Shown here in pieces: positions 9,001 through 14,941 of a stretch of DNA of 64,000 nt. Numbering within the stretch: the stretch's first letter is position 1; each line of letters starts with the position of its first letter. This DNA comes from Escherichia coli (lineage in GTDB: Bacteria > Pseudomonadota > Gammaproteobacteria > Enterobacterales > Enterobacteriaceae): NCBI RefSeq assembly GCF_048403405.1, contig NZ_CP183129.1; one strand, given 5' to 3'. Position numbers: made by a program.

Positions 9001-12000
9001 TAATTCGTCATTGCTCTCTTCATCAAGACTCACCCGCAGTCCGTTCTCAATAATGTTGATCGCTTTTGACAAAGAGACGCCTTTGCCTTGCTGATTGTTG
9101 TCCTGCATAAACAGGCGCGCTCTAACCAGTGCGCTCAGCACTCCATCAAATAGCATGGTGACCAGCTGCTGCTGGCTGGCGCTCATTACGGCGCTTTCGA
9201 CGCCAATTTGTGCATAGGCCTGGGTGCCTTTTGCCGTGTACATGACCTGTCTCCCGATGAATATTGATTACTTGGAATTACTGTTGTTTTCGAACTGCTG
9301 CGTTAAGTAGCTGCTGGTGCTGTTTAACGAGGTCATTAAAACGTCCAGTTGGGTAAATTGTTCTTTGTAGCGCGCGACCTGCGCATCAATGCGATCGCTG
9401 GCGGCGTTGTAGTCTTTAGTTAACTTATTCAGGGTCTTACTAACGCCATCGGTAGCGGCTTTAATAATGCCTGTTGTCGAAAGCCAACTGGTCAGGTTGC
9501 TGCCGATGGTGGTTGTGATGCCGGTTTTTTTACCATCGCCAACAATCAATGCACCTACGCCGCTGGCATCTTTTTTCAATGCAGCGGTGAGTTTGTCGGC
9601 ATCCAGTTCCAGTTTGCCATCGCTGGGATCGGTCGTGATACCAATCTGCGCCAGCGTTTTATAGTTGGAAGAACTGACGGTATTACTCAGCATCGATTTC
9701 AACTGCGTCTGAATCGTCCGCAGCGTGGAGTCGCCGAGCAGTGCGCCATTGCTTGAACTCTGGCTATCAGCTCCCGCATCTACGGCGGTGTATTTGGTCA
9801 GGCTGCTGAAGGTATCTATTAGCGAGTTATAGGCATTCACCCAGTCTTTAATCGCCGTTTGCGCTTTGGAGGTGTCCTGAGTGATGGTTAGCGTCTGGTT
9901 GCCCGTGGTGACATCGTTCAGGTTCAGGGTGATGTTTTCCAGCGCGTCGCTGATGGTGTTGCTGCTGTTCTCAATGGCGACGTTGTTGACCGTCAGCTGC
10001 GCATTCTGGGCGGCGACCGAGACCTCCATACCGTTGCTACTGGCACTGGCGTCATAGCCCATAAAACTTTGTAGCGCATCATTACCGCTGACCGAGAGTG
10101 TCATCGCATTATCAAGGCCGGTGTCATTTGATGTGACTGACAGACGATATTCACCGTTACCCACGTTAATGATGCTCGCACTTACGCCCGCTTTTGCGTT
10201 GTTGATGGCATCACGGATCCCGCTTAACGACGAGTTAGCCGCGCTGATATCAATGGTGATCGGCTCTTTGTCGCCGCCTTGTTGAAGGGTGAGTTTGCTG
10301 TCGCTGGTGGCGATCGCCGTTTTCGTATCATCTCTGGTGGTGCGCGTGGTCAGGGTTTGCGCCTGCGCCAGATGGGTGACGCTGATGGTGTATTTCCCGG
10401 CGATGGCGTTACCCGCGGTGGTGGCACTGAACGCGGTGGTGCTGCTGGTGGTGCTGGTGGCGGAAAAAAGATCGGCTTTAGACAATGCAGTATTGGCGGT
10501 CTGGAAAGTCGTCAGCGCGCTTTTCAGCGTACCGTAGGCGCTAAGTTTAGCGGTAAACGACGATTGCTGATTTGAAATAGGGGTTAGCGTCGCTTTTTGC
10601 GCGGCGGTGAGGCTATCAAGGATTGAACTTAAATCCAGGCCTGACCCGACTCCCAGCGATGAAATACTTGCCATGCGATTTCCTTTTATCTTTCGACACG
10701 TAAAACGAATACCGGGGTTATCGGCCTGAATTGCGCAAAGTTTACGTTTAATTGTTTTTTTTAATAGCGGGAATAAGGGGCAGAGAAAAGAGTATTTCGG
10801 CGACTAACAAAAAATGGCTGTTTGTGAAAAAAATTCTAAAGGTTGTTTTACGACAGACGATAACAGGGTTGACGGCGATTGAGCCGACGGGTGGAAACCC
10901 AATACGTAATCAACGACTTGCAATATAGGATAACGAATCATGGCACAAGTCATTAATACCAACAGCCTCTCGCTGATCACTCAAAATAATATCAACAAGA
11001 ACCAGTCTGCGCTGTCGAGTTCTATCGAGCGTCTGTCTTCTGGCTTGCGTATTAACAGCGCGAAGGATGACGCCGCAGGTCAGGCGATTGCTAACCGTTT
11101 TACTTCTAATATTAAAGGCCTGACTCAGGCTGCACGTAACGCCAACGACGGTATTTCTGTTGCACAGACCACCGAAGGCGCGCTGTCCGAAATCAACAAC
11201 AACTTACAGCGTATTCGTGAACTGACGGTTCAGGCGACGACCGGAACTAACTCCACCTCTGACCTGGACTCCATTCAGGACGAAATCAAATCCCGTCTTG
11301 ATGAAATTGACCGCGTATCCGGCCAGACCCAGTTCAACGGCGTGAACGTACTGTCAAAAGATGGCTCGATGAAAATTCAGGTCGGCGCGAACGATGGCGA
11401 AACGATTACTATTGATCTGAAGAAAATTGACTCTGATACGCTGGGGCTGAATGGGTTTAATGTGAACGGCAAGGGGGAAACGGCTAATACGGCAGCAACC
11501 CTGAAAGATATGTCTGGATTCACAGCTGCGGCGGCACCAGGGGGAACTGTTGGTGTAACTCAATATACTGACAAATCGGCTGTAGCAAGTAGCGTAGATA
11601 TTCTAAATGCTGTTGCTGGCACAGATGGAAATAAAGTTACAACTAGCGCCGATGTTGGTTTTGGTACACCAGCCGCTGCTGTAACCTATACCTACAATAA
11701 AGACACTAATTCATATTCCGCCGCTTCTGATGATATTTCCAGCGCTAATCTGGCTGCTTTCCTCAATCCTCAGGCCGGAGATACGACTAAAGCTACAGTT
11801 ACAATTGGTGGCAAAGATCAAGATGTAAACATCGATAAATCCGGTAATTTAACTGCTGCTGATGATGGCGCAGTACTTTATATGGATGCTACCGGTAACT
11901 TAACTAAAAATAATGCTGGTGGTGATACACAAGCTACTTTGGCTAAACTTGCTACTGCTACTGGTGCTAAAGCCGCGACCATCCAAACTGATAAAGGAAC

Positions 12001-14941
12001 ATTCACCAGTGACGGTACAACGTTTGATGGTGCATCAATGTCCATTGATGCCAATACATTTGCAAATGCAGTAAAAAATGACACTTATACTGCCACTGTA
12101 GGTGCTAAGACTTATAGCGTAACAACAGGTTCTGCTGCTGCAGACACCGCTTATATGAGCAATGGGGTTCTCAGTGATACTCCGCCAACTTACTATGCAC
12201 AAGCTGATGGAAGTATCACAACTACTGAGGATGCGGCTGCCGGTAAACTGGTCTACAAAGGTTCCGATGGTAAGTTAACAACGGATACGACTAGCAAAGC
12301 AGAATCAACATCAGATCCGCTGGCAGCTCTTGACGACGCTATCAGCCAGATCGACAAATTCCGCTCCTCCCTCGGTGCCGTTCAAAACCGTCTGGATTCC
12401 GCAGTCACCAACCTGAACAACACCACTACCAACCTGTCCGAAGCGCAGTCCCGTATTCAGGACGCCGACTATGCGACCGAAGTGTCCAATATGTCGAAAG
12501 CGCAGATCATCCAGCAGGCAGGCAACTCCGTGCTGGCAAAAGCCAACCAGGTACCGCAGCAGGTTCTGTCTCTGCTGCAGGGTTAATCGCCTGAATGCCT
12601 CTCAAACCCCGCTCCGGCGGGGTTTTTTACAATTGGCTTTTTGCGTAACCCCCAAATAACCCCTCATTTCACCCACTAATCGTCCGATTAAAAACCCTGC
12701 AGAAACGGATAATCATGCCGATAACTCATATAACGCAGGGCTGTTTATCGTGAATTCACTCTATACCGCTGAAGGTGTAATGGATAAACACTCGCTGTGG
12801 CAGCGTTATGTCCCGCTGGTGCGTCACGAAGCATTGCGCCTGCAGGTTCGACTGCCCGCGAGCGTGGAACTTGACGATCTGCTACAGGCGGGCGGCATTG
12901 GGTTACTCAATGCCGTCGAACGCTATGACGCCCTACAAGGAACGGCATTTACAACTTACGCAGTGCAGCGTATCCGTGGCGCTATGCTGGATGAACTTCG
13001 CAGCCGTGACTGGGTGCCGCGCAGCGTGCGACGCAACGCGCGTGAAGTGGCACAGGCAATAGGGCAACTGGAGCAGGAACTTGGCCGCAACGCCACGGAA
13101 ACTGAGGTTGCGGAACGTTTAGGGATCGATATTGCCGATTATCGTCAAATGCTGCTCGACACCAATAACAGCCAGCTCTTCTCCTACGATGAGTGGCGCG
13201 AAGAGCATGGCGATAGCATTGAACTGGTTACTGATGATCATCAGCGAGAAAACCCGCTACAACAACTGCTGGACAGTAATCTGCGCCAGCGGGTGATGGA
13301 AGCTATCGAAACGTTGCCGGAGCGCGAAAAACTGGTATTAACCCTCTATTACCAGGAAGAGCTGAATCTCAAAGAGATTGGCGCGGTGCTGGAGGTCGGG
13401 GAATCGCGGGTCAGTCAGTTACACAGCCAGGCCATTAAACGGTTACGCACTAAACTGGGTAAGTTATAACGTCAGTAAATGCCGCACTTTAATTTTGACT
13501 ACCAGGAGTTCTTAATGATGGTGCAGCACCTGAAAAGACGGCCATTAAGCCGCTATCTTAAAGACTTTAAACACAGCCAGACCCATTGCGCGCATTGCCG
13601 TAAATTACTCGACCGCATTACCCTCGTTCGCGACGGCAAAATAGTGAATAAAATCGAGATTTCCCGCCTGGACATGCTGCTTGATGAAAATGGCTGGCAA
13701 GTGGAACAAAAATCATGGGCGGCATTGTGCCGATTCTGCGGTGATTTACATTGCAAAACGCAGAGTGATTTTTTCGATATTATCGGCTTTAAGCAATTTC
13801 TTTTTGAGCAAACTGAAATGAGCCCAGGTACGGTGCGTGAATATGTCGTTCGTCTGCGCCGTTTGGGTAATCATCTACACGAGCAAAATATTTCCCTCGA
13901 ACAGCTGCAGGACGGTTTCCTTGATGAAATCCTCGCCCCGTGGCTGCCCACCACCAGCACCAACAATTACCGCATTGCGTTACGGAAGTATCAACACTAT
14001 CAGCGTCAAACGTGTACCGGACTTGTGCAGAAATCCTCCAGCCTGCCTGCTTCTGATATATATTAAATAAGAATAAGATGTAGCGGAGTTGTTTTTGTGT
14101 TTACAAACAATGGCTCTACACTGCAAACAGACATAACAACATTAGGGGTGAATATGAAATTAGCACATCTGGGACGTCAGGCATTGATGGGTGTGATGGC
14201 CGTGGCGCTGGTTGCGGGCATGAGCGTTAAAAGTTTTGCAGATGAAGGTCTGCTTAATAAAGTCAAAGAGCGCGGCACGCTGCTGGTAGGGCTGGAAGGA
14301 ACTTATCCGCCGTTCAGTTTTCAGGGGGATGACGGCAAATTAACCGGTTTTGAAGTGGAATTTGCCCAACAGCTGGCAAAACATCTTGGCGTTGAGGCGT
14401 CACTAAAACCGACCAAATGGGACGGTATGCTGGCGTCGCTGGACTCTAAACGCATTGATGTGGTGATTAATCAGGTCACCATTTCTGACGAGCGCAAGAA
14501 AAAATACGATTTCTCTACCCCGTACACCATTTCCGGTATTCAGGCGCTGGTGAAAAAAGGTAACGAAGGCACCATTAAAACGGCTGATGATCTGAAAGGC
14601 AAAAAAGTGGGTGTCGGTCTGGGCACCAACTATGAAGAGTGGCTGCGTCAGAATGTTCAGGGCGTCGATGTGCGTACCTATGATGATGACCCGACCAAAT
14701 ATCAGGATCTGCGCGTAGGCCGTATCGATGCGATCCTCGTTGACCGTCTGGCGGCGCTGGATCTGGTGAAGAAAACCAACGATACGCTGGCAGTAACCGG
14801 TGAAGCATTCTCCCGTCAGGAGTCTGGTGTGGCGCTGCGTAAAGGAAATGAAGACCTGCTGAAAGCGGTGAATGATGCAATTGCGGAAATGCAAAAAGAT
14901 GGCACTCTGCAAGCCCTTTCCGAAAAATGGTTTGGTGCTGA

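Follow-up and report, generated by a model that had tools for sequence, protein, structure and literature searches.

The fliC gene in the analysed window, a 64,000-nucleotide stretch of Escherichia coli DNA (contig NZ_CP183129.1), carries a variable middle for which one joint explanation has a probability of about 97%: it is an H6 allele of the class whose outer domains D2-D4 form a sheath, it is read by sigma-28, and it has been spread by recombination. Nothing found in the analysis speaks against this explanation. The gene itself is intact and is an ordinary flagellin gene of E. coli in the well-known H6 form, and in this respect nothing about it is new.

According to this explanation, the conserved FliC termini would fold into the D0/D1 helical core and polymerise into the filament, and the H6-specific middle (about residues 177-457) would fold into three surface domains, D2, D3 and D4. 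These outer domains would pair, with half of the subunits rotated by 180 degrees as in the near-identical EPEC O127:H6 protein, and the pairs would build an outer-domain sheath of tetramers with a seam, the surface of which would bear the H6 epitopes. Transcription would start at a sigma-28 promoter and end at an intrinsic terminator 20 nt past the stop codon.

The fliC gene and its product

The gene order at the locus is fliT-fliS-fliD/fliC-fliA-fliZ, with fliC divergent from the neighbouring fliD and upstream of fliA (Table 1). The open reading frame codes for 548 amino acids, as the preliminary description of this DNA had stated. Pfam domains were found at residues 5-140 (Flagellin_N), 337-452 (FliC domain) and 462-546 (Flagellin_C), with scores of 157.5 bits for PF00669 (cutoff 26.6) and 110.4 bits for PF00700 (cutoff 23), while the NCBIfam model NF005953 (FliC/FljB) gave 776 bits against a cutoff of 619. 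These scores place the predicted protein in the FliC/FljB flagellin family, with both helical terminal domains present; the PGAP product label is the generic 'FliC/FljB family flagellin'. The exact protein occurs in at least 1000 public contigs, and the fliC DNA is found at 100% identity in many complete genomes. The GC content dips to 0.43 at 11600-12200, whereas it is roughly 0.50-0.55 on either side within fliC. The genomes closest to the window are 4621, GN02461, KOr019 and ECONIH1; the window contains no MLST loci.

Table 1 Features at and around fliC (positions in the window)
Feature	Position	Strand	Basis
fliD	9268..10674	-	
fliC coding sequence, H6 allele, 548 aa + stop	10940..12586	+	ORF, protein WP_000079731.1
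fliA	12750..13469	+	
Putative fliC sigma-28 (FliA, class 3) promoter-like site: TAAAGGTT, 11-nt spacer, GACGATAA	10837..10863	+	sequence match
N-terminal conserved D0/D1 filament-core part, residues 1-176	10940..11466	+	colinear with K-12
H6-specific central block, outer domains D2-D4, about residues 177-457	11467..12309	+	no K-12 DNA alignment
GNLTKNNAG, residues 319-327, D4 dimer-site motif of sheath-forming flagellins	11894..11920	+	alignment to 7SN4
(GCTACT)2 = (Ala-Thr)2, two-copy state of an in-frame variable hexanucleotide repeat	11951..11962	+	alignment of length variants
C-terminal conserved D1/D0 part, residues 458-548	12310..12583	+	near-K-12; Flagellin_C 462-546
fliC intrinsic terminator, CCCCGC-TCCG-GCGGGG then T6	12607..12628	+	terminator scan
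2,457-bp tract identical to 2012C-4221 (O162:H6)	10451..12907	.	243 differences over 23.4 kb

Comparison with the K-12 flagellin

When the window FliC was aligned to that of K-12 MG1655 (H48), the identity was 94% over residues 1-170 and 95% over residues 461-548, but only 22%, with 52 gap positions, over residues 171-460. Both a canonical terminal core and a central region unlike K-12, as expected in the preliminary description, are thus observed, and an identical match to the K-12 allele was not seen. The K-12 protein (PDB 8CXM) shares the locus, the promoter and D0/D1 ends that are 94-95% identical; however, it has 498 aa, with a central region 50 residues shorter, so that the proposed length difference of about 50 residues is exactly 50. 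The stretch of fliC DNA that blastn could not align to K-12, namely the central block in Table 1, falls slightly inside the range singled out earlier (11400-12320, residues 154-461). In addition, the K-12 filament chain 8CXM was not among the hits at E<=1e-3 when the central 290 aa were used as a phmmer query. The central block is unrelated to that of H48, and the window flagellin is not of the K-12 type.

Threonine, alanine, glycine and aspartate together make up 54% of residues 171-460 versus 31% of the conserved ends. The earlier remark that the centre is rich in these residues was correct, but the richness is not special, as the K-12 central region likewise reaches 54%; it is a general trait of the outer domains of E. 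coli flagellins and does not set this allele apart.

Expression signals and state of the motility genes

The sigma-28 consensus is TAAAGTTT-N11-GCCGATAA, and the promoter-like site upstream of fliC matches its two elements at 7/8 and 7/8 positions. The 265-bp fliD-fliC intergenic region in which it lies has only two differences from K-12, at 10725 and 10824. A sigma-70 promoter scan was uninformative, as it returned fewer sites than were found in shuffled sequence.

The terminator starts 20 nt after the fliC stop codon, and the distance from the stop to the end of the T-run is about 42 nt, which constitutes a short 3' UTR form. In an alignment, the interval from the stop to the terminator is about 157 bases longer in both K-12 and E2348/69, and the additional sequence contains two REP-like palindromes. 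In K-12 this gives a 195-nt 3' UTR bearing FliX (see PMC10578931 for FliX and FliX-S), whereas the window lacks the REP-containing segment. Its haplotype is accordingly one without the 3' UTR that yields the K-12 FliX sRNA. The REP-bearing 3' UTR is absent from about a fifth of the sampled E. coli genomes, the window's included, and its lack may merit further work. An Rfam scan of 9000-15000 gave no match above threshold; its one sub-threshold hit, to RsmY on the fliC terminator (18.5 bits, gathering score 57), was treated as chance.

An alternative is that fliC is intact but silent, in a strain that is non-motile or has a decaying flagellar regulon, and that the H6 antigen is not displayed. 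Some pseudogenisation has indeed occurred in the window: torY is interrupted by an internal stop, and in tar the loss of one nucleotide (G5 to G4 near 41118) shifts the frame and leaves a truncated receptor, so that chemotaxis in this lineage is not fully intact. However, the loss of Tar removes one chemoreceptor rather than motility, and the frameshift has no bearing on filament formation. The fliC reading frame, the sigma-28 promoter and the terminator are all intact; moreover, strain 4621 is separated from the window by only 6 differing positions in 61.4 kb, and its fliA, fliZ, fliD, fliS, fliT, flhDC and motAB, as well as cheAW, cheRBYZ and flhBAE, are annotated as intact. A silent gene is thus improbable, and the window strain most likely expresses fliC.

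Recombination around fliC

The tract shared with 2012C-4221 without a single difference covers the 5' end of fliD and the whole of fliC and reaches ~158 nt into fliA, and outside it the two sequences are about 1% divergent. When the 243 differences were permuted 5000 times over the 23.4 kb, no permutation reached 2,457 bp, the longest run being 1369. With MS6198, the window is identical over the first 13.4 kb, but this identity stops abruptly at 13426/13427, past which MS6198 is 1-3% divergent per kb for 42 kb. In a comparison of two H6 alleles, 35 codons differ in the conserved ends but only 7 in the central block. Furthermore, H6 coding sequences are joined to short and long 3' UTR forms alike.

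Each of these observations argues against the view that the allele was inherited vertically here and that the identical tracts reflect conservation rather than horizontal exchange. That view has on its side that 7/7 complete genomes with 100% identity over the first 25 kb carry the same allele, and that a same-lineage genome with another H type was not found; nevertheless, we consider it very unlikely. These data indicate instead that homologous recombination has carried the H6 allele from one E. coli lineage to another, and the breakpoints lie within or close to fliD, fliA and fliZ. The preliminary description, which regarded this region as a recombination hotspot and proposed to inspect the flanking genes, is supported in that breakpoints are present in fliD and fliA. 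The fliC tracts illustrate cleanly how H antigens are exchanged between E. coli lineages, a phenomenon that has long been established.

Assignment of the allele to H6

The fliC DNA is 100% identical to that of 2012C-4221, typed O162:H6 (PMC10608928), and to that of MS6198, typed O1:H6 ST648 (PMC8281228). A 100-bp probe from the central block hit exactly 233 of the 5426 complete E. coli genomes (4.3%), and the record names of some of these include O150:H6, O2:H6 and O127:H6. The same 233 genomes were found with a 921-bp central query at >=80% coverage, and the remaining matches, among those sampled, cover at most 12% of this query. All 233 probe-matched places are chromosomal, and the idea of a phage- or plasmid-borne central block was rejected. 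Taken together, the match of the central block to typed H6 strains identifies the allele, as judged from sequence, as H6, in line with the earlier statement that this region determines the H type; it would thus supply the H part of the strain's serotype.

That the gene represents a new or different H type merely resembling H6 is almost certainly wrong: the protein departs from the E2348/69 reference at 8 residues, of which 4 lie in outer domains, and bears only a generic PGAP name, but its DNA is identical to that of published H6 strains, its central block is only 7 nucleotide positions off E2348/69, and the 233 genomes picked by the probe form a discrete set without intermediates. As a strain marker, which was the use proposed for it, the H6 allele narrows the strain but does not identify it; its value is limited, as 4.3% of the complete genomes are H6 and the block is found on several O backgrounds (O1, O2, O127, O150 and O162).

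Likeness to sheath-forming flagellins

The window FliC shares 98.5% protein identity with that of EPEC E2348/69 (O127:H6), and the two have in common the length of 548 aa, the locus, the central block, the D4 dimer motif and the two-copy Ala-Thr repeat; E2348/69 differs in its long, REP-containing 3' UTR. Substitutions in D1 are T100S, T106D, S139A and E154Q, and those in the outer domains, relative to the solved EPEC chain, are T228A, G280R, L337V and T361A. Among the 46 nucleotide differences, 27 are clustered at 11215-11407, in D1-coding DNA that is about 14% divergent, and the DNA of the N-terminal conserved part is thus mosaic.

The cryo-EM structure of the EPEC O127:H6 filament (PDB 7SN7/7SQJ) shows a D0/D1 core with outer domains D2-D4 as a sheath (Kreutzberger et al. 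2022, PMC8931119); K-12 filaments served as the non-sheathed comparison strain in that study. The match of 7SQJ/7SN7 to the window FliC is full length and gap-free (residues 1-548, 1092 bits). By its identity to the solved chain, the window FliC is thus expected to have three outer domains, D2-D4.

Together with H7, H1 and the Achromobacter flagellin, H6 belongs to the outer-domain-sheath (ODS) class. The H7 FliC of EHEC O157:H7 (7SN4) and the Achromobacter flagellin (7SQD) have the three-outer-domain, sheath-forming architecture (PMC8931119) and carry the D4 motif GNLTxNNAG, as does the window, in which the motif is identical to that of E2348/69. In the alignment to 7SN4, N320 and N324 of the window correspond to N319 and N323 of H7, and mutation of these two H7 residues disrupted the sheath and impaired motility (PMC8931119). 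The central regions are otherwise only distantly similar (phmmer with the central 290 aa: E=6e-4 for H7 and E=1e-6 for Achromobacter). In addition, H7 FliC has 585 aa and forms its sheath from dimers, in contrast to the H6 tetramers with a seam. We infer that the filament of the window strain forms the same sheath as EPEC H6. The window flagellin falls in a sheath-forming class whose structure and adhesive behaviour have been studied in EPEC, where binding of the H6 flagellin to host cells and mucins, as well as to collagen and laminin, has been reported (PMC4009794).

A length-variable Ala-Thr repeat within H6

The central block holds a hexanucleotide repeat, (GCTACT)n, which was detected only through the alignment of length variants; Tandem Repeats Finder reported nothing at 10700-12800, as two 6-mer copies score below its threshold. 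Across the 233 H6 complete genomes, n ranges from 2 to 10, and the window has n=2. The strains 2D, KKa019 and 19KM1803 have n=3, 4 and 5, respectively, although they are 0-1 SNP apart over 6.9 kb and their FliC proteins are 100% identical to that of the window outside the repeat. GN05476 reaches n=10 with an intact 564-aa reading frame. In general, the longer H6 alleles of 550-564 aa (2D, KKa019, 19KM1803, GN05476 and DEC2A) have the same H6 central block with n=3 to 10.

In the limited literature searched, no description of (GCTACT)n polymorphism in H6 was found, and this variation may merit further work. The repeat sits about 10 residues beyond the D4 dimer site. One may speculate that this fast-mutating repeat acts as a slippage-driven switch that changes how the sheath of H6 filaments packs, or their motility or antigenicity, which we regard as doubtful; if this were true, the window would represent the minimal, two-copy state.

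Assignment of the fliC gene to the H6 type

Flagellar region IIIa of the window comprises amyA, fliT, fliS and fliD (-), followed by fliC, fliA, fliZ, tcyJ and dcyD (+). The FliC protein scored 776 bits against the NCBIfam FliC/FljB model (cutoff 619), and the intergenic region upstream of the gene mismatched K-12 at two positions. Because the ORF is intact, with a sigma-28 promoter-like site and an intrinsic terminator (Table), fliC is probably expressed in this strain.

Table. Coordinates of the fliC features, the (GCTACT)n repeats and other elements of the window.
Feature	Position	Strand	Remark
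fliC	10940..12586	+	ORF, 548 aa
Flagellin_N	residues 5-140 of FliC		Pfam
FliC domain	residues 337-452 of FliC		Pfam
Flagellin_C	residues 462-546 of FliC		Pfam
Sigma-28 promoter-like site	10837-10863		upstream of fliC
Intrinsic terminator	12607-12628		3' of fliC
(GCTACT)n, window	11951-11962		n=2, found by aligning length variants
(GCTACT)n, strain 2D	L007 (2D locus) 3552-3569		n=3
(GCTACT)n, strain KKa019	L008 (KKa019 locus) 3552-3575		n=4
(GCTACT)n, strain 19KM1803	L009 (19KM1803 locus) 3552-3581		n=5
(GCTACT)n, strain GN05476	L012 (GN05476 locus) ~1545-1604		n=10, intact 564-aa gene
fliE-yedL interval	1893-3331		
tar	41075-42735		aspartate/maltose chemoreceptor gene
torY	54899-55999		
Element in yecE	61414-64000		right-hand end of window
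Integrase of the element	61440..62753	-	437 aa, tyrosine integrase

We retrieved the MG1655 sequence, in which fliC encodes 498 aa, and aligned the two FliC proteins. The results showed 94% identity over residues 1-170 and 95% over residues 461-548, but only 22%, with 52 gap positions, over residues 171-460; at the DNA level, 11467-12309 gave no alignment to K-12. The preliminary description, which had singled out 11400-12320 (FliC residues 154-461), was thus correct in reporting a 548-aa flagellin with canonical ends and a centre unlike that of K-12, and its estimate of about 50 additional residues agrees with a difference of exactly 50. The T/A/G/D richness that it had noted was also measured (54% of the central residues, 31% of the ends), but the K-12 centre likewise reaches 54%, so this composition is a general property of the outer domains and no mark of the window's allele. 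The GC content drops to 0.43 in the central block.

The whole fliC gene occurs at 100% identity in many complete E. coli genomes, including 2012C-4221 (O162:H6, ST5350; PMC10608928) and MS6198 (O1:H6, ST648, phylogroup F; PMC8281228). The FliC of E2348/69, the EPEC O127:H6 prototype, also has 548 aa and differs from that of the window at 8 residues; the genes differ at 46 nucleotides, only 7 of them within the central block. A 100-bp probe placed centrally in this block matched 233 of 5,426 genomes, in each case over its full length and on the chromosome, with records named O150:H6, O2:H6 and O127:H6 among them. The same 233 genomes were recovered at ≥80% coverage with a 921-bp central query, of which the other matches, in the rows sampled, covered at most 12%. 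Taken together, the identical genes in typed strains, the few differences from E2348/69 and the clean probe set indicate that the window's fliC belongs to a discrete type, H6. It is a well-known allele whose structure has already been solved, and nothing in the region departs from known E. coli fliC. Among plasmid records of the E. coli genome collection, two match the full-length gene and one matches the 921-bp query.

The value of fliC as a strain marker, proposed earlier, held only in part: it narrows the candidates to 4.3% of complete genomes, but H6 is spread over several O groups and lineages. At least 1,000 public contigs encode the exact protein. Only seven genomes (4621, TUM1226, MS 69-1, OX030728, TUM14771, GN02461 and KOr019), on the other hand, share the window's first 25 kb at 100% identity, and 6 positions over 61.4 kb separate strain 4621 from the window. 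The lineage is marked far better by the flanks of fliC than by fliC itself.

Recombination around fliC

Four other genomes were compared with the window at single-base resolution. Relative to 2012C-4221, 243 differences were found in 23.4 kb and none across 10451-12907, a tract that takes in the first 224 nt of fliD, the complete fliC gene and the opening 158 nt of fliA. Permuting these differences 5,000 times never produced a run of such length. MS6198 departs from the window at two positions up to base 13,426; beyond this point, at the end of fliA (13,427), divergence rises abruptly to approximately 1-3% per kb through at least 55 kb (≥42 kb). Examination of the flanking fliD and fliA genes, as had been recommended, thus located breakpoints inside both for 2012C-4221 and at the end of fliA for MS6198. 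The latter pattern indicates that a large segment ending at ~13,427 was exchanged in one of the two lineages, the window's or that of MS6198. MS6198 also carries genes absent from the window: tRNA-Leu is followed by a type I R-M island, and dgt and one further ORF lie between flhB and cheZ.

E2348/69 diverges from the window by ~2.4% in the fliC flanks. Of the 46 differences within the gene, 27 are concentrated in the D1-coding part (11215-11407), whereas the central block is almost unchanged. In the conserved ends 35 codons differ and in the central block 7, 4 of them non-synonymous in either case. These exact or near-exact H6 tracts next to diverged sequence, seen with all three strains, show that the H6 cassette has moved into diverged backgrounds and that the fliC ends are mosaic. 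A mosaic, exchanged fliC is reportedly the classical picture of Reid et al. 1999 and Wang et al. 2003.

A variable hexanucleotide repeat in H6 alleles

Some H6 fliC genes are longer by 6, 12 or 18 bases, owing to a perfect, in-frame (GCTACT)n repeat encoding (Ala-Thr)n, with two copies in E2348/69 as in the window. Copy numbers among H6 alleles span 2 to 10. Strains 2D, KKa019 and 19KM1803 are 0-1 SNP apart over 6.9 kb when the repeat is excluded, so its copy number varies within a clone. Among the 233 H6 genomes, 58 have three copies and 36 have four, judged by the identity bands of the 100-bp probe, and an evenly spaced sample gave estimates of ~110 with two and ~27 with at least five. The (Ala-Thr)n stretch lies ~10 residues past the D4 dimer motif, where H7 shows a 5-residue gap.

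A short fliC 3' UTR

K-12 and E2348/69 have 320 bp between the fliC stop and the fliA start, whereas the window (12587-12749) and 2012C-4221 have 163 bp. The ~157 bases absent from the window include two REP-like palindromes and, in K-12, constitute most of the 195-nt FliX sRNA. Overexpression of FliX and of the ~100-nt FliX-S, which includes one REP, resulted in less flagellin and fewer flagella (PMC10578931). With this stretch missing, the window's fliC locus cannot yield a K-12-type FliX. Both UTR forms are common: in 40 evenly spaced E. coli genomes, the short form was found in 8, roughly a fifth, and the long form in 25. Each of the two is found downstream of H6 coding sequences.

Filament structure and function

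The window's FliC matched PDB 7SQJ and 7SN7 over its entire length (1092 bits). Both are models of the filament of EPEC O127:H6, obtained by cryo-EM (Kreutzberger et al. 2022, PMC8931119), in which the D0/D1 core symmetry is canonical and the H6 arrangement is tetrameric, its helical symmetry being broken by a seam. For H7, the same paper reports that mutating a pair of asparagines in the D4 dimer site disrupted the sheath and impaired motility. Alignment to the H7 chain placed these residues at N320 and N324 of the window's FliC, within an unchanged GNLTKNNAG (residues 319-327). When the central 290 aa were searched against solved structures, the only other relatives were 9N59 (E 1e-10), 7SQD from Achromobacter (1e-6) and 7SN4 of H7 (6e-4), and the K-12 filament chain was not recovered by this search. 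A review (PMC4009794) names HeLa cells, mucins, collagen and laminin among the targets to which EPEC H6 flagella are reported to adhere.

Other features of the window

The tar gene has a 1-nt deletion in a G run near 41118 (G5 to G4, codon ~15) that shifts the frame, and the longest ORF left starts at a GTG (41194) and spans 513 aa; PGAP also calls tar frameshifted in strain 4621. Codon 61 of torY is an in-frame stop, and the 4621 annotation lists torY as a pseudogene with an internal stop. An integrated element truncates yecE at ~61421. It starts with its integrase gene, behind which come genes for an excisionase and for DUF4222 and DUF551 proteins, and it therefore resembles a lambdoid prophage. 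The otherwise near-identical strain 4621 is without this element, and the same junction occurs in 268 complete genomes, O104:H4 strains among them. According to the 4621 annotation, the fliE-yedL interval holds a fragment of an integrase gene, 141 bp long, together with a DUF5503 gene that carries a frameshift. A 1.2-kb stretch there gave no alignment to E2348/69 or 2012C-4221, and the region shows one window difference from 4621 and MS6198, at position 3457.
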